Assembly (NCBI GenBank): GCA_965200245.1
Contig: CBDATS010000002.1
Span: 192,001 to 256,000 of the forward strand
Reading direction: 5' to 3'
Origin: a bacterium
GTDB lineage: Bacteria > UBA8248
Length of the DNA stretch: 64,000 bases
Under the pieces are notes generated by a model that did not search any database, was not told the DNA's origin, and saw nothing but the letters and a program-made list of their open reading frames with translations. Both the position numbers and the translations under genes were made by a program. Positions 26,858 through 57,598 of the stretch are shown here, one piece after another. Every line of letters begins with the position of its first letter. Within the stretch, counting starts at the first letter, position 1.

Positions 26858-28236
26858 TCAGGCTGGAACACGTTCCGCCTTGCAGACAAGTTCCATCACC
26901 TCGGAGATGCTATCGAGATTTTCCAGATTCCTCACCCGCTCGATGAGCAAGTCACCCGTTTCCCTTTCGAGCACAGGAGCCGTCATTACCTGAAATCGTT
27001 CAATTAACTCATCCCAGGACAACGGATTCCGAGAATCTCCTTTGGGATAATCCTGATGCGCGTCAAAAACGCCCCGATCCGTCTCGATTTCGACATGCGC
27101 TTGCCACTTGTCCGGAAATTCCTTTTCCATTTCGGCGTCACCACAGCATTCGATTTTCCTGATGATGGAGGAGTACACCTGGGAACGCAGGAAATCGTCC
27201 GCATACTCATCAAGCCCCGCAGCGCGCCTGAGGATTGCTACGGCCACGGCGTATTGAAGGCTGAACTGGGCTGCGGATTCGTTTTCACATCACAGGGCTC
27301 GATGACCACCATCACACTCGTCTCAGGAACCCGAACCTTTACCCGCCTGATTTCCTCAGGCTGAATATCATGCGTTTTGCAAACTTCGATTGTGGCGTCA
27401 ATCGAAGCATGGTTATAGCGACAGCATGCATAGGGCTTTATGGCACTCTCGCAAATTTCCCAATACTCGCCAAAGTGCTCCACCACATACTCAGGCGTAT
27501 AATCATCACTGTGGCCATGCAAAAATCCCGTCTTGCCACCTAAGATATCTTCCGGCCCCGTATATCCCTCCAGGGCCAGATATGCTGCGATAATGCCGCT
27601 ATGCGCCGCCCATCCCGGGTGAAACCTCTTCGTCCAGGCGCCGTTATCGAGGTATTGCATCGAACCCGCCGCCTGGCTGCCCGCAATGCCCATTGCATTG
27701 GAGGTGGCTTCTGCAGACAACCCCAAAAGCTTCGATGAGGTAATCGCAGAGGCGAAGGTCCCGCATGTACCGGTGGGATGAAACCCACGCTCATAGTGGC
27801 TTGTCGGGTTTACGGCGTTTCCAATCCGATTGGTGACTTCATAACCTGCCACGATGGCGGCAATTACTCTCTTTGGATCGGGTTGATGCGCCTCGGCGAC
27901 TGCCAATGTACTGGGCATGACACTGACTGCGGGATGCAGACTCGATCGGGTGGTCACATCATCCATTTCCGTGGCGTGGCTCACGCCGCCGTTCACCAGC
28001 GCGGCATGAGGAGCGTCGGTTTTCAAAGCCGAGCCGATGATGGTGCATGGTCCGCCGCGAGGGGCGCGTTTCTCGGCGAAATTGTGAAATATCCGGGAAC
28101 TTGCCGCTTCCACCGCTCTCAATGTTACGCCGAAGTGGTCGAGCAGAAAGTATTTCGCGCGTTCCCTGGCCTCATCGGGCAGAGATTCATAGGTAATGGC
28201 GTGAACGTGCTCGACAAGCATGCGGCTGATATTCAT
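26858..28236 (-). pseudogene. MmgE/PrpD family protein, frameshifted near 27270
   Basis: The N-terminal ORF (EMDD, HP, GFHPTG, KRFHPG, KPYACCRYNH) shifts frame just before the conserved AQFSLQYAVA. The C-terminal frame carries PKGDSRNPLS. Confidence 0.85.
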
Positions 28237-32356: not shown

Positions 32357-33490
32357 TCAGGATTTTCTTCTGAGTTGCGCTCTCTTGCTGCCTGCGCCTT
32401 CGCTGTGCGCCTCGCCTTTACGGCGGTGTCGGATAAGTTCGGCGACGATGGCGACTCCGATTTCGCCCGGCGTATCGGCACCGATATCAAGACCTATAGG
32501 CGCATGTACTCGCTCGATGAGTTCACCCCTGTCATAACCCTTGTCCTGGAGGTGGCGATACGTGAGCAGCACCTTGCTCTTCGAGCCTATCATTCCGATG
32601 TAGCGCACGTCGGTCTTCATCGCCCACTCAAGGACGACCTCGTCGTTCGCATGCCCTCTGGTAATGATAGCCATATAGTCGGACTCATCAACGGGGATTT
32701 TCTCGAAAATCTCTGGAAATTCCCCCACGTAGAACGATTCCGCCATCGGGAAGCGCTCCTTGTTGGCGAACGAAGGCCTGTCCTCGACGACCGAAACGCG
32801 GAATCCCGCGAGATAAGCCGCCTGCGCGACGCAAAACGACACGTGTCCGCCGCCGAATATATACACGAGGGGCTGGCCGGAGATAGGTTCGACAAAAATT
32901 TCAGTCGTGTCCGTGAGCTTCGAGCGCTTTTCTCCCGCGTTCGTGAACTGCATGAGCGTGGGACTGCCATTCCGGATGATTCGGGTGCTCTCCGCCCAGA
33001 CTTCCGTTGAATAGTCGGGAATCTCGCCAACGGCGCTGCCGTCACGCCGGAAGAGCATCTTTCTGTTCTTCGTATCCGGCACGTCGATATCGCCCGGCTG
33101 AACGATGGTCGCCAGCGCCGCGCTGCCACCCTCGGTTCTGATGCGGTTGATCTCTTCGAGCAACTCTTCCTGAAACGCCTGAAACGGCTCCACAAGTATC
33201 TCCACCACGCCACCGCAGATGTGCCCGCTGTCTTCGGCTTCTTGCTGGGTGAGGTCAAAGCGGAGCTTTTCAGGTGCACCCGTCTCAAGGACGCTCATGG
33301 CAGTTTCCCACACTTCGGCCTCAAGACAGCCACCGCCTACGGTACCCTCCGTGCTACCGTCCTCGCGCACGAGCATCTTCGCGTCGCCGCTCATGGGCGC
33401 GGACCCCTTGCGGGCCACGACGGTGGCGAGCGCGCCGCTCTGGCCTTCTTCCTTGAGCCTTGCCATCTCCCTGAAAACGTCCTTGCCCAT
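32357..33490 (-). CDS. xdhC: XdhC/CoxF family molybdoenzyme maturation factor
   Basis: GSAP, GTVGGGCLE, GHICGG, a second CoxI-like repeat, FGGGHV, TRGH, YIGMIGS, PIGLDIGADTP. Confidence 0.92.
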   Translation of the reverse strand: MGKDVFREMARLKEEGQSGALATVVARKGSAPMSGDAKMLVREDGSTEGTVGGGCLEAEVWETAMSVLETGAPEKLRFDLTQQEAEDSGHICGGVVEILVEPFQAFQEELLEEINRIRTEGGSAALATIVQPGDIDVPDTKNRKMLFRRDGSAVGEIPDYSTEVWAESTRIIRNGSPTLMQFTNAGEKRSKLTDTTEIFVEPISGQPLVYIFGGGHVSFCVAQAAYLAGFRVSVVEDRPSFANKERFPMAESFYVGEFPEIFEKIPVDESDYMAIITRGHANDEVVLEWAMKTDVRYIGMIGSKSKVLLTYRHLQDKGYDRGELIERVHAPIGLDIGADTPGEIGVAIVAELIRHRRKGEAHSEGAGSKRAQLRRKS

Positions 33491-33521
33491 TCCTTTCTCC
33501 GCCTACGTGAAATAACGCCCT

Positions 33522-34343
33522 CTACGGCGTGATCCGCAGGATAACTTTACATTCGCTGTTCATACAAGACGTGAAGAGAATGCCGTCCGCCAAACCATGA
33601 GGCTTGCCAGCCAATTCCCATACAGTATAGGCCGTTTTTTCGAGTTTTTCCAGTGAAGTTTCCAAATCCGTCTTGTTGATGACGATCCACTTGCGCGCAC
33701 TGGCCCCGACCCTTCGGAAAAGACCATCGGGATGCGCGCACAGCCTCCCGATTACCTCCGCAGTTATCTCCCCGCCCGCATCCAGTCCGCAGATTCGCGC
33801 CAGCGCTTCAGGGCGAAAGACGTGCTCTGCGCTCAAGGGCGTGCCCAGTGCATCCAGTCCTACGACGCCAAGTACCGTGTCCAGGCTTTCGGGCAGTACG
33901 GGTTCATCGGGACCCGGCGCCTTGATGGGCAATCTTCTCGCCCCGTCCGCCTCGATAAGCGTGATCGCGTCGGTGAGCTTCAAACCAGCGGTTTCATGAG
34001 GCGCGAAGCCGCTCAGCTTCATGCGCCGCTCGCCCTCCTGACCCGGAACCGGGGAGTTGCCCTCGCGCCTGCGGGCGATCCAGGACATGCCGCAAGCATC
34101 CATATAGGTGCGGAGGTTCCTGGCGAGCGTTTCGGCATCACCCAGGGCGAGGTGGATTCTTTCTTCGGAAAGTGGCGCGAATATCTTCGTCGTCGTCGTG
34201 AGAATCGCAGGTTTTCCGCTTTGAGCGTGAAACTCCCTGGCGATGGCCGTCAGCAGGCTCGTTTTTCCGCCTGCGCCGACAGCCGCGACGCTCTGCCCCG
34301 GATTTATACCGAGGGAGAGAACGACACCTTGTTGCGCTACCAA
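33522..34343 (-). CDS. yqeC: Selenium cofactor biosynthesis protein YqeC
   Basis: VGAGGKTS, TTTTKI, IEADGARRLPIKAP...EPVLP, HPDGLF, INK. Confidence 0.9.
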   Translation of the reverse strand: MVAQQGVVLSLGINPGQSVAAVGAGGKTSLLTAIAREFHAQSGKPAILTTTTKIFAPLSEERIHLALGDAETLARNLRTYMDACGMSWIARRREGNSPVPGQEGERRMKLSGFAPHETAGLKLTDAITLIEADGARRLPIKAPGPDEPVLPESLDTVLGVVGLDALGTPLSAEHVFRPEALARICGLDAGGEITAEVIGRLCAHPDGLFRRVGASARKWIVINKTDLETSLEKLEKTAYTVWELAGKPHGLADGILFTSCMNSECKVILRITP

Positions 34344-36109
34344 GCACGACTCTCCACGCCACCGAGCAGTTCGCGCCTCAAAATGTTTACAAGTTCGGTG
34401 GAAAGCTGGGAGAGGTCCTGCACCACGATGTGGTTGGGGTAGATTTGTTCCACGAAAGGGTCCACGACACCGACGCCTATGACGCGCACGCCCAGCTTCT
34501 GCAGCCGGTTCACCGTGTTCACGAGGTGGGTCGCGTCTCCATTGGGTTGGCCGTCGGAAGTGATAATAATTACCTTCTCCTCCTCGGGCCGCTGGATAAG
34601 CCTGCGGTATGCGAAGAGCAGGTGCTCCTCGTCCCAGTTGTTGAAGCGCGGGTAGATGTTGACGAGCCTGTGCTTCACCTGGGCAAACTGGTCCTCAAAA
34701 CCCTTGTAGATTCGGTGCTGCAGCGGCGAATGCCGGATGTGGCGGAACTTGAATGCCGGAATATGCCCCAGTGCCGCCGCCATGGCTGCTTCCGAACTCT
34801 CGGTGGAGTAGCCGATGATCTCGAAAGGCACGTCGAGACGGTCGAGGGCTTCTGCGAAGAAGATGGTCGCCTCCCTCGCTGCCATGTACTTCGACTCGCG
34901 GTTCATGCTCCCGCTCTCGTCTACCAGCAGCGTGAAGCATACGTCCAGCTTGTCGGGTTCTTCCTTGCGGTGAAAGAGATGGAATTTCCCCAGCCGCTGC
35001 TTCCAGAGCTTGGGGAGGTCCAGCTTGCCTGATCGGTGCGAACCGCTGTAGCGCGTGTAGGTTCTCTCCTGGATGATCTGCATGAGCTTCCACACCAGCA
35101 CCTTGATGTGGCTGCCGGCATTGTCGATGACCGCGGCGTATTCCTCGGCCTTCCCCTCGGGCGGCAATACGATGGTCCGCTCATCGGGATGTTCGGCGGT
35201 GGGGTGAACCTCCTTCCTGTTGCCCTCAAGTTCGAACCAGGGAGCGGCCCAGTGCCCGAGTGCCGCGAGTTCCTCGGGACTCAGGTCGACCTGCTCGCCC
35301 ACGTTTTCCTCGTCGATTTCCTCGGCCGCTTCGGGGTGGAGCATTTCGAGGGGTTCGTCATCTTCACCCTCCAGGTTTTGGCTCTCGATTTTCTGGAGGA
35401 TTTCTTCGGGAATTTCCGAGAGGTCCTGACTCTCGCTCATCTGGGCGAGTTGCTCTTCCGTGAGGTATCGCTGGATGGCGTCGTAGATTTCATTCGCGCA
35501 ATCGAAGGCAGTCTTGGGATCATCGGCAGCGCATGCGCGGTCAATCAGCGGGATGAGCCTGTGGAAAATCTGCACGACCGGGGAATCGAACCAGGCCGCG
35601 GGCAAATCTCCAGGCCGCGAGGAGGGGACACCGGGTGTCTGCCCTATTCCGGCGAGATAGAGTCCCCACTGGATCTGGAGAAACAGGGGAAGTTGCCCGC
35701 CCATATGGTTGCGCTCTGCCGCCTCGATGGCCGGCAGGATGAAGGCGCGGAAATTCTTCCTGGTGCCGGGCAGCGATTCCGCAAGGCGGTTTTCGCAGCG
35801 CGCGTCCTCAAGGGTGTGCCAGATATGGAAAAGACCCGGCCTCTCCCGGTTCGCGAGCGCGGCGCGGCCGGCCCACTGGAACGTTCCGTGGATTTTGTGA
35901 GCCACCTCGATGAGCGTCATACCCTTCTGGTACCTGAGTACGTGTTCATCATTCAGGTCACCGCCCAGGCGCGCCAGGGTCTGTTTGGGATCTTCGACGT
36001 GAATGGCGTCCTCGCCGTCCTTCGCCTTGGGGCCGAAGTTCAGGGCGAGTTCGTAATCATGCGCGGTCACCTGCGCGAGTGCCTCAAGACGGGCGCGTCG
36101 GCGTTCCAT
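34337..36109 (-). CDS. VWA-domain protein (NorD/CbbO/CobT-like)
   Basis: LEDARCE N-terminal motif, acidic linker, SGKLD, MIDAS motif LVDESGSM, TSDGQP. Confidence 0.85.
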   Translation of the reverse strand: MERRRARLEALAQVTAHDYELALNFGPKAKDGEDAIHVEDPKQTLARLGGDLNDEHVLRYQKGMTLIEVAHKIHGTFQWAGRAALANRERPGLFHIWHTLEDARCENRLAESLPGTRKNFRAFILPAIEAAERNHMGGQLPLFLQIQWGLYLAGIGQTPGVPSSRPGDLPAAWFDSPVVQIFHRLIPLIDRACAADDPKTAFDCANEIYDAIQRYLTEEQLAQMSESQDLSEIPEEILQKIESQNLEGEDDEPLEMLHPEAAEEIDEENVGEQVDLSPEELAALGHWAAPWFELEGNRKEVHPTAEHPDERTIVLPPEGKAEEYAAVIDNAGSHIKVLVWKLMQIIQERTYTRYSGSHRSGKLDLPKLWKQRLGKFHLFHRKEEPDKLDVCFTLLVDESGSMNRESKYMAAREATIFFAEALDRLDVPFEIIGYSTESSEAAMAAALGHIPAFKFRHIRHSPLQHRIYKGFEDQFAQVKHRLVNIYPRFNNWDEEHLLFAYRRLIQRPEEEKVIIITSDGQPNGDATHLVNTVNRLQKLGVRVIGVGVVDPFVEQIYPNHIVVQDLSQLSTELVNILRRELLGGVESRAW

Positions 36110-36123
36110 GCCTCATCTCCCGG

Positions 36124-37008
36124 CTAGAAATGGTTGTCCACTATGTCCTCAAGCACTTTGGCGTCGAAAGAATTCACCTTGCCGAAAATGGTCGAGACGG
36201 CGGCATCCATCGGGTCGAACCGCGCTGCCATGCGTGCCCAGTCGATGAGACGCCGGGTGCTGAACGTGCAGAACACCTTTTCGTTCTGCATGGCATCGCG
36301 CACATCGTGGCCCACGCGCACCATGCGCTTGACGAGTTCCTCGTCGCCGTTCCCGCTCTGCTGCATAATGACTTCGACTTCCGCGTCGAAGGGGAGGTAG
36401 TCCATCTTCACGGTGACAGGAAAGCGGTCCAGAAGTGCCTCATTCAATGGCTTGGTGCCGCCGTACCTGCGGTCTTCGTGCGGATTCATACTGGCAAAGA
36501 GTCGGAAGTTCGGGTGCGGTTTGACGATGCGTCCATCGTATTCGGACAGGACGATCATCCGGTCGTCGTCGAGAAGGCTGTGCAGACAAAAGGCGATTTC
36601 CGGCAGACATGCGTTGATCTCGTCGATGAGCAGCCAGTCGCCCGATTGCATGGCGTCGACCAGGATGCCGTTCACCCAGTAGGTGCCCTGTTCGTTGATC
36701 ATCAACTTGCCCACGAACTCATCGACCGTGGTCATGCCGTTCAGGTTCACGCGCCGAAAGCCGTTGTTCGTCATGTGGGCCAGATGACGCACCGATAGGG
36801 TCTTTCCAACACCCGTCTCACCCACCAGGAGAACGGGCAGGTTCTGGCTCACCGCCCACGCGATGCGCTCAAGCGCGTCGCCCGCCGCGAGATAGAACTG
36901 CGCAGGGGGAACGAAGGAGTTTCCGTTCGCCTCGTTGAGGGGAATTTCGCTGCGCCCGATACTGTAGACGCCGTTTTCCACCGTTTCGGTCAGTATTTCG
37001 GTACTCAA
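36124..37008 (-). CDS. MoxR-type AAA+ ATPase (CbbQ/NirQ/NorQ-like)
   Basis: Walker A GETGVGKT, Walker B LLIDEIN, ASMNP, LNEALLDRF and a CbbQ_C-like FSTRRL. Confidence 0.92.
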   Translation of the reverse strand: MSTEILTETVENGVYSIGRSEIPLNEANGNSFVPPAQFYLAAGDALERIAWAVSQNLPVLLVGETGVGKTLSVRHLAHMTNNGFRRVNLNGMTTVDEFVGKLMINEQGTYWVNGILVDAMQSGDWLLIDEINACLPEIAFCLHSLLDDDRMIVLSEYDGRIVKPHPNFRLFASMNPHEDRRYGGTKPLNEALLDRFPVTVKMDYLPFDAEVEVIMQQSGNGDEELVKRMVRVGHDVRDAMQNEKVFCTFSTRRLIDWARMAARFDPMDAAVSTIFGKVNSFDAKVLEDIVDNHF

Positions 37009-37859
37009 TTCGCATACTCCATCGCTGAAACGCCAAACAGGAACATCATGATGGCCTCAAGCGCGCCGCCGCCGATGGCGCGCGATTTATCGGATATCGT
37101 GTGGCAATGGGAGGGTTCGGCCCTCGGGTCGACGTCGCCGACCTTGAAGCCCGCACTCACATCGATGCCGTCCCTCAAAAGTCCGCGCAAAACGCCGTCG
37201 ATGGCGGAACACACCTCCAATCCGTCCACACGGGCGACGGCTTCTCCCGCGCGCACCGCGTCGCCGATTCGGGCAATGGAGGTAAAGACGCCCGCCCGGG
37301 GGGCGCGCAGCAGCCTCTCGGTGGTGTAGCCGCCGATGGGTCCGGGAACACCCGTATTGGGTCTGGCCGCACCCTCCAGAATCACCCTCCCCAGGTCATG
37401 GCCCCGGGAGGTTTCGACCACGGCATGGCAATCAACGCCCGCCGTGAAACCCGGCCCCAGACCGATCACGACCTGCGCATCGTCGATGCGCGTGCCGAGG
37501 TTTCGCTTCGCCAGAATCGCATCTATCACGACGGCGGGCCGGAGATAAGCTATCGCCTCTGCGCGGGGGTCCACCATCACCGGAACAGAATCCGCCTCCA
37601 GAATGGCACGCGCGTTCGCCGCTTTTTCCTCTATGGATTCGCCTTCCGCCCGGGCGGAGGTCACACCCTCTACTTTCCATTCACCGGCGTAGAGGCACTC
37701 GGCGAAGGAGACGGTGCGCCGCACCATGGTGGGGTTCCCGATTTCGGTGATCGCTACCGGAAAACCCGCGCGGTGCAGGCGGTGCGTCACACCGGTGGCG
37801 AGATCGCCACCCCCTTTGACAAGCACGAGCGTATCGGCAATGGCCCTGCGGTTGCTCAT
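37005..37859 (-). CDS. yqeB: Selenium-dependent molybdenum cofactor biosynthesis protein YqeB
   Basis: VKGGGDLATG, VRRTVSF, IDAILAKRNLG, GLGPGF, ETSRGHDLG, NTGVPG, GVLRG, KVGDVDPR, ISDKSRAIGG. Confidence 0.93.
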   Translation of the reverse strand: MSNRRAIADTLVLVKGGGDLATGVTHRLHRAGFPVAITEIGNPTMVRRTVSFAECLYAGEWKVEGVTSARAEGESIEEKAANARAILEADSVPVMVDPRAEAIAYLRPAVVIDAILAKRNLGTRIDDAQVVIGLGPGFTAGVDCHAVVETSRGHDLGRVILEGAARPNTGVPGPIGGYTTERLLRAPRAGVFTSIARIGDAVRAGEAVARVDGLEVCSAIDGVLRGLLRDGIDVSAGFKVGDVDPRAEPSHCHTISDKSRAIGGGALEAIMMFLFGVSAMEYAN

Positions 37860-37863
37860 GCTT

Positions 37864-38256
37864 CTAGTCTTCCACGAAGGCGACCACGTCAATCTCGATG
37901 AGCCATTCGGGTTTCGCCAGCCCGCTTATGATCAGGAGCGTACTCGCCGGGTAGGGTTCATTGAAGTAGGTCTGCCGCACTTCCATGCTGGCCGGAAAAT
38001 CCGCGGGGTCGGTAATATAGACCGTCAGACGGACGATGTCCTCCATCCCGGCACCCGCCGCTTCGAGTGCGGCCTTGATGTTCTCGTACACCTGCCTGGT
38101 CTGGGCTTTCATGTCATTGACCCCGACCGTGTTGCCGTCCACATCGACCGCTACCTGGCCTGCCAGCATGATGAGATGTCCGTTCGATACCTTCCAGCCT
38201 GTGGAATACGCGGCGACAGGCTTCACCTTATCGGAGTCGATTCGTTGTTTCGCCAT
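37864..38256 (-). CDS. Rid (YjgF/UK114) family protein
   Basis: YS, LAGQV, QTRQVYENI, PAST, LIEIDVVA. Confidence 0.9.
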   Translation of the reverse strand: MAKQRIDSDKVKPVAAYSTGWKVSNGHLIMLAGQVAVDVDGNTVGVNDMKAQTRQVYENIKAALEAAGAGMEDIVRLTVYITDPADFPASMEVRQTYFNEPYPASTLLIISGLAKPEWLIEIDVVAFVED

Positions 38257-38473
38257 AGGTTGTTCCTCCTGCGCCTTGTTAGAAAAGAAAGGTCATCTTC
38301 CCCAGAGGGGGAGAATCTAGCACGGGGCCGAAACCGAGGCAACGCAAACGGGGCAATCGCCTGGAAGGGGATGATTCGCCAAAACGCCGCCATTCCGGCA
38401 CATACCGAAATGATGAATGCAAAAATCACATGACCGAGAACGCATTTTTCGGGACCATCAATGATCTGGACAG

Positions 38474-38638
38474 TCAGTTCTTTTTCCTCACCAGGCAGAC
38501 TGACCGGAGGACTGCCAGTGCCAGTTCGTCAGCAGTCGCGTCGATGCGGACCGATTCCTCTGGCCCGGCCTTTGGTGGCTGATAGCTGGATGGCTTGAGG
38601 TAGACTGTTGGTTTTTCAGTTGCTGCCCGACCGGTCAT
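38474..38638 (-). CDS. Small hypothetical protein (YQP motif; possible mobile-element passenger)
   Basis: KPTVYLKPSSYQPPKAG.EESVRIDAT.DELALAVL, with RBS CAGGAAAG upstream. Confidence 0.45.
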   Translation of the reverse strand: MTGRAATEKPTVYLKPSSYQPPKAGPEESVRIDATADELALAVLRSVCLVRKKN

Positions 38639-38703
38639 TTCACTTTCCTGTTTTTTCACAACTCACAAGTTCTGGAAAACCCATCTTCTTGTGAAGACAA
38701 GAA

Positions 38704-39525
38704 TCATATCTTGATGAACTCCAGTTTCGTACGCAAGGAATCCTCGAATTCCCCGCGCCTTACAGTCTCAGCCGACAAAAGTTTGTCGTTCGAAGCTTCC
38801 AGCGACAAAACCTCCCAATGATATTCTTCCAACTGATAATCGTCGCTCATGCGGGGGACAAGCCAGACGATATCCCCATCGTTGAGATCTTGCGATGGAT
38901 TGTCAGTCGCTCCGCCTATAGCCTCAAAAAACGGAAGATCAACGGCGACAGCCAGCTTTGTGCCCCAACGCCGCAAAGTCGGTGCCTTGATCTGGAGTTG
39001 GGGCATCAACCGTTTTGCGCTTGATGATCGCCAGTCCGGCCTTCTGAATTCCGTTGGTGCCGGGGGCTGGTCACTTTCATCTGTCAACAGCATCTCGAAG
39101 TCTGACAGCATCCCTCTGCCGGAAAAGTACACGGCCTGAATCTCCAGCCCGAACCATGCAGAAGCCTCGCAGTCTTGTGCAACAACCAAATCAATGCGCC
39201 CTGCCGGTCGTCCCGTTGCCGGCGAACGCATAAACGGTACTTCCCGGGCAAGATAGACGGGAGGGAACCCGACAATACGCGCCAGCCATGTGGGCAGGAG
39301 ATTGTTCTCGTCAAACTGGCTCGGGCAGGTGATGACAGGCTGGCCATCTGTTGCCTAGATTGAACATACACCACCTTTCTTGCTGCATAACGGTTGCCCA
39401 CGCTGAAAAGGACATGGGGGAGGAGGGTCATATCCTAATGCGGAACGAGCCAGTTTCTGTCGTCGCTGCGCATCCATCGTCCGGAAGGGCTCGCCAAACC
39501 ATTCGGCAATGCCATGCCCGCTCAT
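38704..39525 (-). pseudogene. NotI-family restriction endonuclease with in-frame TAG at 39355-39357
   Basis: Read-through gives IAEWFG...CPF...CSKKGGVCSI*...VITCP...EVPFM...GRIDLV...LEIQAVYFSG...RPDWRSSSAKRLMPQLQIK...WG.K. The start overlaps the methylase stop (ATGA). Confidence 0.85.
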
Positions 39526-40383
39526 GCGAACAGCGGCTCTGAGGTGATGACCAGTTCTGACAGATTGTTGTGGTGAGTGTTTTTCATGGAACCCCCCACA
39601 GCGTCAAAGCCGTGTTCCCGTACCAATTCGATGATCTCCGGTGCTGCATCATAGGTCATCAGGAAATTCGAATCGTTCGCAGCCAGGATGCGAAACAATG
39701 CCGCATGATTGATGGTCGAGTGTGCATAGAGTCGTGTCCCTGCCTTTTTCCCTCCGGGTGCCGAATAGGGGGGATCGAGAAATACCCCGGCTTTCCGGCC
39801 CCAGCCACGCAACAGGACCGGAAGAATCTTCAGGCCGTCACCTTCCAGGCAAGCGATCCGGTCAGCGTATTCCTGTATGGCTGCAAGGCGTTTCAGGATA
39901 CCATCGTGATCCAAGCCCCTTGCCGTTCTCGCCATATCGCGAGAACGATGCACCCGGAGCAAGAATCCCGCCTCTCCGGGTCCGGTTCAGGACCAGAGTT
40001 CGAAACCCGTGTTCCGCGACAGTGCCGGGTGGTTCGCCCTGCAGCCTTTCCAGGTTCTCGTGGGTCGGCGCGAACTGACGAATCCATTCGCACAGTATCG
40101 TGCCGCTTTCCAGCGCAGACCGCCAGAAGGCAGCCACATCACGGTCGAGTTCGACCATCACAGCGGACGGAACCAGATCTTCCATGACCGCCGTGAGGGA
40201 TACGATGGCACCCCCTGCGAACGGTTCTATCAGGATTTCGGGCTTCGTGTGACGAAGCCATTCACGGATATGCGGGATCAGCCAAGTCTTGCCGCCGGGA
40301 TAGCGGAGCGGACTGCGCTGGGGGACCTGAGCGACGTTGACAACCGGAACCCGAGAGGAAGGGAATGTGACAGTTGTACTCAC
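39522..40383 (-). pseudogene. Dam-like (D12 class) DNA adenine methyltransferase, frameshifted near 39890
   Basis: SPLRYPGGK, IEPFAGG, LNRT and SRW in one frame; FLDPPY, LY.H and MTYD in another. Confidence 0.88.
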
Positions 40384-40722
40384 GACCGCGCCCCTGACAC
40401 TTTCCCGTCTCCTGCGATAATATCCATATAACAATGTAATACACTGCAATATAATGCATGAGAATAAATTTCAACATCTATATATTGGCTATTGCCTTGT
40501 CAACTGAACAATTACATGGAAATCGTAGAGTGCCTTCGGTCGGCCTTCCGTTGCCAATCCCATTATCCACCACCCAGCAGATAGTCTCATTTTGCAGTCT
40601 CATGCATTTCTTCACCACCAATCTTGCTGCGCCAGTAACGCAACAATTCGTGTGATGCTCGATGAAGGAGCAAAATCATAGAGGAAATTGCTAAAATTTT
40701 GTAGGCTTCCATGAATTACGCT

Positions 40723-41406
40723 TCACTTGTCGAATATTCGTCTAATATTCAGGGACACTTGATCAACGAAACTTTTCCAGTCTTGATAAACACGGACTGA
40801 TGCTTTTTTGACTGTCGGTGCTTCAGTAGTCCTTCGAAGTCTTTCTCGCAGAGACTACATATACTGATTAATTTCTCGTGCAGAGGAATAACGCTCACGA
40901 TTTGGTATCTTGTTGCTGTCCAAGAAGCCCTTGGGGATATTGTGTTCAGCAAATTTGAAGTTTTCTGGCCATAGATTTCTTTCACGATCGTTTCCAGGTT
41001 GGATGGATCCATTTTTGTAATCTTCATGGAACAATTTGGACGCTGCCACCAAACGCTCGAAAAGAGAAGGCGATACAATGCTGAAATCCAGGTCTGAATT
41101 TTCATTAAATTCTCTTCCGAATTTAGAAGACGCTGCCAACGAGTAACCTATTCTCGAACTTCCAATGAGGGTGATCTCTTTCGGGTGAACATCAAGTCGG
41201 TCTCCAAGCCAGCCGCGTATATCTTCATAGATTGCGGGACAATCGCGAAAAGCATATGGCACTCCTTCAGCCAACCATAGACGTACGAAAATCTCTCGCT
41301 CCCGTTCCGTGCTGTTTTCCAAAGCGTTGCGTAATTCAACAGGACAAGGGAACGGATAGGGCAGTGCCTGAAACCCCGGGTCAATTCTGAATGGTTTTGT
41401 CATCAA
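40723..41406 (-). pseudogene. Pol-beta superfamily nucleotidyltransferase-like protein with in-frame TAG at 40855-40857
   Basis: LIGSSRIGYSL...SDLDFSIVS (GS...DxD). The frame continues after the TAG as SLRERL...SVRVYQDWKSF... to TGA at 40723. Confidence 0.7.
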
Positions 41407-41994
41407 GATGCTCGTAAGTTCCGGCCTGGATATGACGCTGGTAAAGACCGAGCAGATGTTTGCTCCGTCGCTTTATCTGTCGAACAAGGGATACGGGCGC
41501 AATTCTCGCTTCTGGATATTTTAATCGAGCAACAACGAGGCGGCCTCGTCCAGTGACAAGGAATTGGGATGAAACCCAAGGCGCTGACACGCTTGAAAAT
41601 ATCCGTTCATACGCCAGCCATAGTAGGCGATAGACAAATAGACGCTTGGGAGAATGTTTTTCTGGAAAGAGGCATCGACAAGTATTGCCAAGAGAATCTC
41701 ATTCAGTTTGCGGTGAATGGTACGCTCATATCTGCACGTAATGGTACGGACAATCTGCTGTTCAATGGTACTGGCACCTTCACGTGATCGGAAAGCGATT
41801 CGCCGCCAGACAGCTCTGCAAATAGCAATGATATCGAAACCAGGGTGGCGAGAGTGTCTGTGATCTTCTCCCGAAACGAGAAGTTGTTGAGCGACCAAGG
41901 GTGGTGAATTTTCTGGATGGGCGAGTCTCGCGCGTTCTGCCTCGACACGAGACCACACGAAGTCCCAGTCTTCGCATGTTAAACGGCGCAACAT
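41381..41994 (-). pseudogene. GT51 transglycosylase-domain protein without membrane anchor, frameshifted near 41533
   Basis: GEDHRH..H.GFD, GASTIEQQ, RKLNE, KNIL..YL..AYYG, EAASL / VARLKYP (shifted). The start could alternatively be TTG at 42018. Confidence 0.8.
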
Positions 41995-42085
41995 CTTCAA
42001 GATAAAGTTTCGAACCAAGTGATGGTATCCTTTATCAATTCCCAAGCTTACAACCAACGTGGTTAAGGGAATGTAGATATTCCTC

Positions 42086-43159
42086 TCACCTATTCCTGAC
42101 CAGCCTTGCCGCGAGAATGAGCGCGTCGACCATGCTGGAGGGGTCGGCGATGCCTCGACCAGCAATGGGGTAGCCCGTTCCGTGCTCGACCGAGGTTCTG
42201 ACGATGGGCAGACCCAACGTGACGTTGACGCCGCGCACGCGTGCCTGTCCATCGGAGTCGAAGCGGAAACACATCAACTTACCCGGTATGTGGCCCTGAT
42301 CGTGATACATCGCCACCACGCCGCCGTAGTAGCCACCGCGCAACTTGCCAAAAATCGTGTCCGGCGGTTCGGGGCCGTGCGCGTCGACACCCATTTCTCT
42401 CAGGTCCGCGACCGCGGGCGCAATTTCCTGCACTTCTTCTGTTCCGAACAGTCCGGACTCACCCGCATGGGGGTTGAGACCCGCGACGCCGATTTTATGT
42501 TTCTTACCTTCGAGCCGGTGGAGGGCGTCGTCCAGAACGCGGGACACATAGACGATTCTCTTTCGCTTGACGCGCCTGAGCGCAACTTTCAGGGGGCAAT
42601 GGGTGGAAACGTGCGCGATGCGTATCCTGCGGTGTGCCAGCATCATCACGGGTTGTCCCTCGCCACACAGATCGGCGAGCATTTCGGTATGACCCGGATA
42701 GCCATACCCCCCAGCTTGCAAGGATTCCTTGTTTATCGGCGCGGTCGCGATGGCGTCCACCCAGCCTGCACGCGCCATCTTGACGGCCTTTTCGATAAAT
42801 TGGCCAGCAGCCGCGCCCAGTTCGGGGAGAACTTTTCCGTATACCCGGTGCTCACCAGCGACATTTGCGAGATCGAGAACGGGGGTGACGGTCGGGTCCC
42901 CAGGTTGCGGGAGTCTGCTCTCATCCGGCATCCGTGTCAGCCGCGCCGGGATATCCATCCGCCGGGCATGCTTCCTGAGTACAGCCATATCGCCCACGAT
43001 GAGAGGCACACACCTTTTCCGAACGCTCGGTTCCAGGGCGGCTTTGAGACATACTTCTGGACCCACCCCCGCCGGGTCTCCCATGGTCATGGCAATGACA
43101 GGTCTATGTTTCAACGGAACTTCCTTTCTTTCCCGGCACATCATTTGCGGAATATTCAT
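42086..43159 (-). CDS. pdxA: PdxA family dehydrogenase (PdxA/PdxA2)
   Basis: TMGDPAGVGPE, TAPINK, GHTE, GLNPHAGE, AMYHDQG, NVTLGLP, RTSVEHGT. Confidence 0.9.
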   Translation of the reverse strand: MNIPQMMCRERKEVPLKHRPVIAMTMGDPAGVGPEVCLKAALEPSVRKRCVPLIVGDMAVLRKHARRMDIPARLTRMPDESRLPQPGDPTVTPVLDLANVAGEHRVYGKVLPELGAAAGQFIEKAVKMARAGWVDAIATAPINKESLQAGGYGYPGHTEMLADLCGEGQPVMMLAHRRIRIAHVSTHCPLKVALRRVKRKRIVYVSRVLDDALHRLEGKKHKIGVAGLNPHAGESGLFGTEEVQEIAPAVADLREMGVDAHGPEPPDTIFGKLRGGYYGGVVAMYHDQGHIPGKLMCFRFDSDGQARVRGVNVTLGLPIVRTSVEHGTGYPIAGRGIADPSSMVDALILAARLVRNR

Positions 43160-56146: not shown

Positions 56147-57520
56147 CTACGAAAGCATGGCGGTGAGATGAGTCAGATCCTCCGCCGTATCGAGACGATA
56201 CCAAGCGTCCCAAGCGGCTTTGGCCTTCCCTGCCGGGAGGCCAGAGGCGCATTCCAGGAATTTCTCCCGGAGTTCCAGTTCCGTCAGGGGATTCTCGACG
56301 TGGCCTCGCGCGCGGGCGAAATGGCGGGTGAGATGGCGCCCGTCTTTAAGTTCGACCCAGACTTCAGCCGCCTCGGTTTCAGGGTCCTCGCGCGACATCT
56401 TCTCGTCCAACTCAAACGCCACACGCTTCTGGAGCGCGACTATCTCGGGCCGCTGCACACTTTCCTCCCTGAACTGGTGGATACCGACCTTCCGGTCCAC
56501 AAGTGCGGAAGCAATGCAGAACGGCATGGAGAATTTCCCCTCGAGACCCGTGGTCGCTTCCCTGTAACGCAGGACCTTGAGCGTCATGGTGGATGCCCGC
56601 GCGCCCAGGGCCGCCACGTCTTCCACGTTGACATCCTCGCTCGTCACCAGATCGAGCATGGCGTCGATGCCCGGATGCGTCATTGCGCAGCAGGGATGAA
56701 TCTTGACACAGACGCCCTCTTCAATGTCCCAGGGTGCACCCCAGGGAATGACCGCACTCTCCCAGTCCGCGAATTCATGGGCTTTCGGTCCGATTCCCTC
56801 CGCCGCCATGGCCGCCGTGAAACCCGTCTCCAGCGTATCTTCTGCCGCCGTGAAGCCGCCTTCCGCGAGTTTCGCCGCCACGAGGCCCGCTCTTGCGGAC
56901 TGGCCCGCATGAAAGGGTTTCGTCATCGTGCCGAAGTTCGACACCAGCCCCGCCGAGCCGCTGGCACCCAGGCTCAGGGCGTTCATCGCCTGCGTCTCGT
57001 CCAGCCCGAGCAGATACGCTCCTGCACCTGCCACACCGACCGAACCGAGTGTGGCCGTGGCGTGGAAGCCCCGGCGATAATGCCCGGGATTCACCGCACG
57101 GCCCAAGACATGCAACAGTTCGAAACCGATCGTGTAGGCTTCCAGCACTCTGGCACCCCCGATTCCCCTCTCCTCTGCCAGTGCGATGAGCGCAGGCACC
57201 AAGGTGACGCTCGGGTGCCCCAGCATCACGAAGTCCACATCGTCGTAATCAAGCGCGTGGCCCGCCGTTCCGTTCACGAAGGCGGCCCAGGAGGCACTCG
57301 TACGCTCATCGGTACCAATCAGGCGAGCAACAGGCGCACCGCCCTCGGAGACTGCAAGCCGATGCGCGAGCCTCGTGCATTCATCCTCCCGACCGGCCAG
57401 AATCACGCCCAGCGTGTCGAGCACGGCGTTTCTTGACTGCGCGCGGGCCTCCTCGCTGACGTCGGAAGCACGAGCCGCCACGATTCTTTTCGCCAGCTCT
57501 CTCGTGGCCGGATAGGTCAT
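56147..57520 (-). CDS. MmgE/PrpD family protein
   Basis: HALDYDD, GHPS, GFHATAT, TKPFHAG, KIHPCC, GKFS, G..ENPL. Confidence 0.92.
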   Translation of the reverse strand: MTYPATRELAKRIVAARASDVSEEARAQSRNAVLDTLGVILAGREDECTRLAHRLAVSEGGAPVARLIGTDERTSASWAAFVNGTAGHALDYDDVDFVMLGHPSVTLVPALIALAEERGIGGARVLEAYTIGFELLHVLGRAVNPGHYRRGFHATATLGSVGVAGAGAYLLGLDETQAMNALSLGASGSAGLVSNFGTMTKPFHAGQSARAGLVAAKLAEGGFTAAEDTLETGFTAAMAAEGIGPKAHEFADWESAVIPWGAPWDIEEGVCVKIHPCCAMTHPGIDAMLDLVTSEDVNVEDVAALGARASTMTLKVLRYREATTGLEGKFSMPFCIASALVDRKVGIHQFREESVQRPEIVALQKRVAFELDEKMSREDPETEAAEVWVELKDGRHLTRHFARARGHVENPLTELELREKFLECASGLPAGKAKAAWDAWYRLDTAEDLTHLTAMLS

Positions 57521-57598
57521 GGAGGATTCTCCTCGCATACGGGTGAATATGGGCGGGATGGCTCCCGCAGTGCCGGGGGACCGACCTCGATTTTCAAG

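Follow-up and report, generated by a model that had tools for sequence, protein, structure and literature searches.

In Afipia (Oligotropha) carboxidovorans, the xanthine-oxidase-family CO dehydrogenase is accompanied by the MoxR ATPase CoxD, the VWA protein CoxE and the XdhC-family protein CoxF. CoxD has been reported to be needed for the ATP-dependent sulfuration of the CO dehydrogenase Mo site (PMC4240915). Other described AAA+/VWA motors include CobS/CobT of the aerobic cobaltochelatase, NorQ/NorD and CbbQ/CbbO. Selenium-dependent molybdenum hydroxylases (SDMH) are associated with the accessory proteins YqeB, YqeC, SelD, XdhC and MocA, and the route by which labile selenium enters molybdenum hydroxylases has been stated to be unknown (PMC11448449). 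The AAA+/VWA pair described here is encoded among genes of the SDMH accessory system and, judging from gene context and homology, is probably a CobST-like counterpart of CoxD/CoxE in molybdenum hydroxylase maturation that has apparently not been described. No paper turned up in a literature search for MadB/MadC, names used in NCBIfam.

The operon and its surroundings

The pair lies within a six-gene run on the minus strand (32357..38256) of the 64 kb stretch of DNA analysed (the window), in the order Rid-yqeB-AAA-VWA-yqeC-xdhC. All of the reading frames are open, with zero internal stops, and the junctions from Rid to xdhC measure +4, -4, +14, -7 and +31 bp, the ATG start of yqeB lying 4 bp past the Rid stop codon. 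These coordinates and gaps agree with the first-pass annotation, which had described six co-oriented intact genes with overlapping or short junctions. The features are as follows:

37864..38256, minus strand: Rid-family (YjgF/L-PSP) protein, 130 aa, first in the run (PF01042, 99.4 bits)
37005..37859, minus strand: yqeB, stand-alone selenium-cofactor marker, 284 aa (TIGR03309, 358.9 bits, cut-off 220)
36124..37008, minus strand: MoxR-class AAA+ ATPase, CobS-like, 294 aa (Pfam AAA_5 and CbbQ_C)
34337..36109, minus strand: CobT-like VWA adaptor, 590 aa (Pfam CobT_C)
33522..34343, minus strand: yqeC, selenium-cofactor marker, 273 aa (TIGR03172, 159.6 bits, cut-off 73.05)
32357..33490, minus strand: XdhC/CoxI-family molybdenum-cofactor chaperone, 377 aa (PF02625 and PF13478)

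The window resembles the SDMH accessory system in the joint presence of YqeB and YqeC that characterizes the SDMH trait, both scoring above cut-off, and in the accompanying xdhC and Rid genes; its XdhC protein scores 313 bits against NF045664, below the cut-off of 350. A Rid gene is also carried by the Haloarcula SDMH locus. By contrast, the classical SDMH loci examined are without the AAA/VWA pair, which therefore cannot be a universal selenium solution, and selD, mocA and a molybdenum hydroxylase client were not found within the 64 kb window. No tRNA genes were found within the window either, and promoter and terminator scans of it stayed at chance level.

Strong purifying selection acts on the ATPase and VWA genes, whose dN/dS values are the lowest (0.02-0.08 and 0.04-0.05, respectively; yqeC, 0.21-0.27). 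Broken genes near the operon encode MmgE/PrpD, a DNA methylase and a NotI-family nuclease. Selection had earlier been argued from the intactness of the operon amid decayed accessory genes; selection itself is borne out by dN/dS, but none of these neighbours is an accessory gene for molybdenum or selenium, and they thus provide no argument for it.

Two genomic contexts of the orthologous loci

A GTDB scan recovered 54 loci (L001-L054), comprising 34 orthologous loci, all carried by metagenome-assembled genomes, and 20 more distant ones. The VWA gene comes next after the ATPase gene in 32/32 orthologous loci with enough contig. yqeB lies immediately 5' of the ATPase gene in 23/34 orthologous loci, as against 0/20 distant loci in the same scan, and these include every orthologous locus outside the Chloroflexota (23/23); yqeC and xdhC come next downstream in 16/19 non-Chloroflexota loci whose contigs extend. 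Part of the family lacks the Rid gene, which lies upstream of yqeB in 17 of the 23 yqeB-linked loci. The 14 closest loci (at least 93% identity) form a single clade and are non-independent, but the yqeB link is also found in L015-L018, L019, L020 and L021/L022/L034, with ATPase identity down to 68%, and the distant orthologues tested (five YqeB and two YqeC) all score above the profile cut-offs. The linkage to yqeB/yqeC/xdhC therefore recurs across the orthologous loci, and the refutation by absent linkage foreseen in the first-pass annotation did not occur. In L021, a yqeB-AAA-VWA arrangement has a xanthine-oxidase-family enzyme 3.4 kb downstream; no hydroxylase was found in the flanks of L022 and L034, and no selD in the flanks of L001-L054. 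A plasmid search found no orthologue, the best ATPase identity being 38%, with no record covering 80% of the VWA protein.

The second context is provided by 11 orthologous loci in Chloroflexota; in 10 of these, the pair comes after a molybdenum hydroxylase encoded in split form. Its M subunit is encoded upstream in 10/11 loci (adjacent in nine), the F-S-L-M set is complete in 9/11, and xdhC occurs further downstream in 4/11, while in a further genome the adjacent locus tags A2Y93_14785 (M subunit) and A2Y93_14790 (ATPase) repeat the linkage. Neither yqeB, yqeC nor selD was found in the Chloroflexota locus flanks. Among the 120 matches listed in an M-subunit search, four name a taxon, all Chloroflexota, and no client for the window's lineage was found among the matches listed. 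The best solved relative of the Chloroflexota hydroxylase is the selenium-dependent nicotinate dehydrogenase of Eubacterium barkeri (3HRD), a similarity that does not by itself show selenium. As a selenium marker, the split L/M layout was dismissed, since relatives that are as close or closer (45-51%) are present on Salinigranum, Sinorhizobium and Yoonia plasmids, which gave no yqeB match. In Yoonia and Sinorhizobium, the related hydroxylases have a CoxD-like ATPase (47% and 51% identity to CoxD, respectively) in the same slot, and in Salinigranum, the third close relative, no AAA/VWA pair was found within 12 kb.

The constancy of yqeB, and of no enzyme, as the neighbour in the 23 yqeB-linked loci, together with the overlapping junctions of a pair placed between yqeB and yqeC, would suit a motor that works on the maturation proteins YqeB, YqeC and XdhC, for example by freeing finished cofactor from its carrier, rather than on the hydroxylase, as would the placement of the Chloroflexota branch inside the yqeB-linked grade in trees (p-AU 0.006). 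Such a motor is considered unlikely, because in the 11 Chloroflexota loci it is the enzyme that is the fixed neighbour and yqeB and yqeC are missing from the flanks, and because the MoxR/VWA motors in the literature consulted target the final enzyme (NorQD on cNOR, CobST on CobN).

[quoted passage not shown] The suggestion, made from the window alone, of a dedicated machine that opens such enzymes for selenium is strengthened as regards the client class, since orthologues in another phylum lie directly behind an enzyme of this family. Its selenium specificity fares less well, given that the pair is missing from the classical loci, the Chloroflexota flanks carry no markers, and CoxD/CoxE can occupy the same slot beside related enzymes. 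A selenium-specific insertase, in which the motor would open the enzyme for installation of YqeB/YqeC-activated selenium or of an XdhC-held selenated cofactor, is conceivable but rather doubtful; it would make the Chloroflexota enzymes unrecognised selenoenzymes, with yqeB and yqeC elsewhere in the genome.

Relationship to described AAA+/VWA motors

By sequence, the pair is CobS/CobT-like, with an Asn-type MIDAS, and is neither CoxD/CoxE nor NorQ/NorD. The MoxR AAA+ signature set of the ATPase is fully intact, comprising Walker A (residues 63-70), the helix-2 insert (96-111), Walker B (D129/E130), sensor 1 (N175), the arginine finger (R195) and sensor 2 (249-253), and the catalytic residues are invariant in 40/40 aligned sequences. 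FSTRRL, previously taken for a tail, is not one: it is the sensor-2 motif, at residues 249-254 of the 294-residue protein. The VWA protein is modelled (pLDDT) with a helical N-terminal domain (~1-225), an acidic disordered linker (~246-292) and a finger region (~352-386) followed by the VWA domain, in which the MIDAS residues D397, S399, S401 and N491 are invariant in the alignment and D519 is nearly so. Its best PDB sequence match is CobT (E 7e-14), and its Atlas lead is a CobT-domain cluster (0.96); a Foldseek search with the model gave NorD VWA domains as top matches, and a fold search with the N-terminal domain gave weak matches only, the best being ZMPSTE24 (Z 5.8, rmsd 3.9, 135 aligned), a faint hint at most of a zincin-like fold.

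Among characterised sequences, CobS and CobT come closest (30% and 28% identity), and CobT shares the order of N-terminal domain, linker, finger and VWA domain and the D-S-S-N-D MIDAS. However, the pair falls far below the TIGR01650/TIGR01651 cut-offs (88.5 vs 558.55 and 60.5 vs 759.05 bits), and sensor 2 of the window ATPase is STRR, not SPRT. A true cobaltochelatase motor, or a passenger that hitch-hikes in the operon and has some unrelated client, would be in keeping with CobS and CobT as the best non-midasin PDB matches, with the CobT-type Asn at the third MIDAS position, and with the unrelated neighbours of CobST-like pairs (35-38% identity) on Burkholderiaceae plasmids. It is nevertheless very improbable in view of the low scores, of the failure to find cobN among the neighbour ORFs scanned (a selection from the window and the orthologous loci), and of the two molybdoenzyme contexts in two phyla, which hitch-hiking would hardly yield. 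cobN is often unlinked.

The pair resembles CoxD/CoxE in combining a MoxR ATPase and a VWA protein with an XdhC-family gene and a xanthine-oxidase-family enzyme, and its position in the Chloroflexota loci, behind the large subunit, is that of CoxD/CoxE. The encoding of enzyme and XdhC alongside, a trait of CoxD/CoxE (APE2220 subfamily), is found by way of the 10/11 Chloroflexota loci; the window has xdhC and no enzyme. The two pairs are non-orthologous, with family profile scores of 18.0 bits (CoxD) and 2.8 bits (CoxE), a separate tree branch, other sensor 2 and MIDAS motifs and a VWA protein of 590 aa (window) versus 399 aa, and the window pair is tied to selenium markers, without an implied copper site.

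With NorQ, the ATPase shares a helix-2 insert that lines up with the NorQ motif GRXL(L/I)XXXXT and an STR-type sensor 2, but in a tree whose representatives of the CGN subfamily (NorQ/NorD, CbbQ/CbbO) came from four NorQ/NorD pairs, NorQ forms its own supported clade. The third MIDAS position is Thr in NorD, which reaches 5-17 bits, versus 101 for CobT, and no nor or rubisco genes lie nearby. The initial description of the ATPase as CbbQ/NorQ-like thus holds for the helix-2 insert and sensor-2 motifs, but not for its grouping, which is with CobS-like proteins apart from NorQ; that of the VWA protein as NorD/CobT-like rather than CoxE-like stands for CobT and against CoxE, while MIDAS motif and profile scores speak against NorD.

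Proposed mechanism and significance

Because the pair belongs to a selenium-linked gene set and has relatives beside molybdenum hydroxylases, the motor probably helps to assemble or activate these enzymes, possibly at a selenium step. The model is of a motor of the MoxR type that is dedicated to molybdenum hydroxylases of the xanthine-oxidase family; what has been observed is that the catalytic and MIDAS motifs are intact, that the family is small and discrete, and that its two genomic contexts both concern these enzymes. As in the CobST and NorQD structures that have been solved, the ATPase would form a hexamer with the VWA finger through its pore, and ATP turnover would rotate the VWA domain. 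The MIDAS may then hold on to the folded hydroxylase, in its apo- or inactive form, at an acidic site and loosen the molybdenum-binding subunit(s), upon which XdhC could deliver the cofactor, or the terminal sulfur or selenium ligand could be installed. In the window lineage, the cofactor handled is probably the selenium form, since YqeB and YqeC are co-transcribed with the pair; the motor itself need not tell Se from S. Counting against the model are the lack of a client and of selD in the window, the hydroxylase-free flanks of L022 and L034 and the Salinigranum relative with no pair within 12 kb; CoxD has, moreover, been questioned as a chaperone acting on the apo-enzyme (PMC4240915). A complex prediction for the L024 VWA domain with the L and M subunits and Mg scored 0.00 and weighs neither way.

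The genomic case for the client class would serve equally well for a reactivase without a role in first assembly, which would free the mature hydroxylase from an inhibitor or a damaged chalcogen ligand, as in CbbQ/CbbO, described as a rubisco activase. This is held to be quite improbable, as being co-transcribed with yqeB, yqeC and xdhC, all of them biogenesis factors, suits assembly better, and the CoxD precedent is about assembly.

Read as an assembly or activation motor, the family is a concrete candidate for the motor behind labile-selenium entry into molybdenum hydroxylases, and the Chloroflexota loci, where a single operon encodes both the motor and its candidate client, are suited to co-expression. 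Should the motor prove to be a selenium-specific insertase, labile-selenium cofactor assembly would gain its first identified ATP-driven step. Even without selenium, the family would represent a second, CobST-like AAA+/VWA lineage in an apparent CoxD/CoxE job, allowing the installation of terminal chalcogens by such motors to be tested.

The operon and its surroundings

On the minus strand of the window, six genes run in the order Rid-yqeB-AAA-VWA-yqeC-xdhC without internal stops, spaced from Rid to xdhC by +4, -4, +14, -7 and +31 bp, in agreement with the first-pass annotation, which had described six intact, co-oriented genes with two overlapping junctions. YqeB (358.9 against an NCBIfam cut-off of 220) and YqeC (159.6 against 73.05) both pass, and XdhC contains both Pfam XdhC domains. 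Pairwise dN/dS against close relatives (three comparisons) was 0.02-0.08 for the ATPase (AAA) gene, 0.04-0.05 for the VWA gene, 0.12-0.14 for yqeB and 0.21-0.27 for yqeC. Close relatives carry the labels Nitrospinota or Ca. Tectomicrobia. No selD, mocA or xanthine-oxidase-family subunit was found within the 64-kb window. The decayed neighbouring genes (MmgE/PrpD, methylase and NotI-family nuclease), earlier described as accessory, have no relation to molybdenum or selenium:

38704-40449, just upstream of the operon: degraded restriction-modification pair, a truncated NotI-family nuclease and a frameshifted D12-class adenine methylase
26858-28236: MmgE/PrpD gene broken into two ORFs
56147-57538: intact MmgE/PrpD paralogue

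In the relatives L001-L019, loci from a GTDB genome scan, xdhC is followed by comF and, on the opposite strand, by pdxA, and acyl-CoA dehydrogenase genes lie upstream. In the window (32357-43159), pdxA shares the operon's strand and lies upstream of it; the comF and acyl-CoA dehydrogenase genes are missing from the flanks, so here the operon has been rearranged as an intact block.

Anatomy and family placement of the pair

The ATPase retains Walker A and Walker B and, named as in AAA+ proteins generally, an arginine finger and both sensor motifs (1 and 2), and its catalytic residues show no variation across 40 aligned sequences. The VWA protein is modelled (mean pLDDT 77.9) with a helical domain at the N terminus, joined through an acidic, disordered linker to a finger region and a VWA domain; the MIDAS residues are D397, S399, S401, N491 and D519. 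The Asn is shared with CobT, for which 10.64898/2026.10.09.757910 gives the MIDAS as Asp-Ser-Ser-Asn-Asp; CoxE and the four NorD proteins compared have Thr instead. An N-terminal HExxH motif is present in the VWA proteins of L020, L022 and L034 and degraded in the window (35900-35930, residues about 64-72) and in Chloroflexota; fold matches of this domain to zincin peptidases are weak. The VWA gene of one relative carries a frameshift (L001:12030), either an assembly error or recent decay.

The family forms a small, discrete set: of 1.84 billion representatives searched, 10 score above 400 bits; scores then drop to about 300 and on to a broad band around 200. When annotated references were scored, the ATPase profile gave 122 bits with CobS, 72-111 with NorQ and 18 with CoxD, and the VWA profile 101 with CobT, 5-17 with NorD and 2.8 with CoxE, but the pair falls far under the cut-offs of both CobS and CobT. 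A 36-row tree was built from the window, 24 orthologues out of 34, the more distant L035 and 10 references. It unites the 25 family rows in a single clade (97/97), whose neighbours are CobS-like proteins and a phage-context ATPase; NorQ and CoxD branch separately, and several outgroup branches are long. From these scores and this position, the pair is best called CobST-like. The earlier label, a CbbQ/NorQ-like ATPase with a NorD/CobT-like VWA protein, stands for the NorQ-like helix-2 insert and sensor 2 of the ATPase and for the resemblance to CobT, but not for NorD, given the low profile scores and the Asn; Foldseek nevertheless ranks NorD top for the VWA model, and CobT is not among the matches listed.

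The closest outside relative of the ATPase (52%; L035:10001-10612) lies near a phage portal gene on a contig labelled Aquaspirillum. L036-L043, on contigs labelled Omnitrophota, Planctomycetes and Thermotogae, carry genes with a midasin-like layout, in which a VWA match comes after several AAA modules in tandem.

Two genomic contexts

The pair has intact motor motifs, is under selection and occurs in two genomic contexts. The scan, a sample, yielded at least 54 loci, at least 34 of them orthologous (ATPase identity at least 64%). Among the 34 orthologous loci listed, the VWA gene follows the ATPase in all 32 where the contig extends. The proposed linkage recurs outside Chloroflexota: among the loci listed, yqeB lies directly upstream of the ATPase in 23/23. 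In 16 of the 19 loci that could be assessed, the VWA gene is followed by yqeC and xdhC; the three exceptions, L021, L022 and L034, lack both genes there. As 14 of the 23 yqeB-linked loci form one tight clade, the independent cases number about five lineages. At L021, an unsplit hydroxylase lies 3.4 kb downstream of yqeB-AAA-VWA. Neither yqeB nor yqeC was found in the 20 more distant loci listed.

In the second context, the flanks of the 11 Chloroflexota loci listed (L023-L033) contain no yqeB, yqeC or selD, and upstream of the pair lie four genes for a molybdenum hydroxylase, encoding FAD and Fe-S subunits plus split L and M subunits (F-S-L-M). The M subunit is upstream in 10 of these 11 loci and adjacent in nine, L026 being too short to tell; the complete set is present in 9/11. 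For at least 10 ATPase matches, counted by eye, the longest contig has the same length as that of an M-subunit match, and one pair has adjacent locus tags. The top PDB match of both L and M is E. barkeri nicotinate dehydrogenase (3HRD), named selenium-dependent in PMC2276186. Monophyly of the yqeB-linked rows was rejected (p-AU 0.006; 21 rows, the group chosen after the first tree, outgroups long, root differing from the 36-row tree), a result pointing to the yqeB link as the older context.

The Chloroflexota loci share a conserved cluster (about 1-20 kb) encoding IolB, TIM-barrel isomerases, a DHDPS-family aldolase, a UlaG-like lactonase, the F-S-L-M hydroxylase, the AAA/VWA pair, an aldehyde dehydrogenase, a transketolase-like protein and XdhC. 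Its content resembles a catabolic pathway for sugars or inositol that is so far uncharacterised. In some loci (L025:3769-4794, L030:12661-13605, L023 end), the VWA gene is followed by a short gene for a MoeA-like molybdopterin-binding protein, with 33% identity to the gene beside yqeC-mocA-yqeB in Peptoclostridium. The M subunit is frameshifted at L029:9116-9146, by assembly error or recent decay.

Possible selenium specificity and proposed role

The first-pass annotation had proposed an ATP-driven machine opening xanthine-oxidase-family enzymes for selenium loading. Several results speak against a selenium-specific role. The pair was not found in the yqeB/yqeC loci of Haloarcula and Peptoclostridium, and no record in a plasmid collection, including 21 with YqeB at 45% identity or more, matched the VWA protein at 80% coverage. 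The Chloroflexota M subunit has its closest plasmid relatives (45-51%) on replicons with no yqeB match. Of the three examined, two encode a split non-CODH hydroxylase whose M gene is immediately followed by a CoxD/CoxE-type pair:

L056:11038-13001: CoxD/CoxE-type pair, Yoonia
L067:9051-11011: CoxD/CoxE-type pair, Sinorhizobium

The third, Salinigranum, has no AAA/VWA pair behind M. The simplest reading is that this hydroxylase class often needs an AAA+/VWA helper, a slot filled by two unrelated pairs. The best NCBIfam matches of the Yoonia proteins are MadB/MadC, under cut-off. In Thermomicrobium roseum, a YqeB-like gene under cut-off (196.9 against 220; L069:9905-10822) adjoins modA/modB.

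In the reports on NorQD (PMC13036017) and CobST (10.64898/2026.10.09.757910), the VWA finger is threaded through the hexamer and the VWA domain is rotated against the client. CoxD, assigned to the APE2220 subfamily in PMC3893208, is described in PMC4240915 as necessary for the Mo site to be sulfurated in an ATP-dependent manner; the authors of the latter doubt chaperone action on the apo-enzyme. The pair would grip a hydroxylase and loosen it so that XdhC can load the cofactor or the chalcogen, and in the window's lineage YqeB/YqeC would supply the selenium form. Molybdenum hydroxylases are probably the client class; that the pair acts in a selenium-specific step is less likely than not.

No description of the pair was found in a literature search that took in few subscription journals, and supplementary gene-neighbourhood tables could list it. 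The term ATPase has a count of zero in PMC2276186, PMC2432076, PMC5322559, PMC11448449, PMC13653126 and 10.1101/2025.04.24.650524. Seventeen papers name both yqeB and yqeC. Among the best 30 of 57 matches from another search, no paper mentions yqeC, and the one that names yqeB is a review in which YqeB and CoxD are treated apart. A selenium role of the pair is plausible and testable, but not universal. The pair itself is real, conserved and CobST-like, apparently undescribed, and tied to molybdenum hydroxylase maturation.
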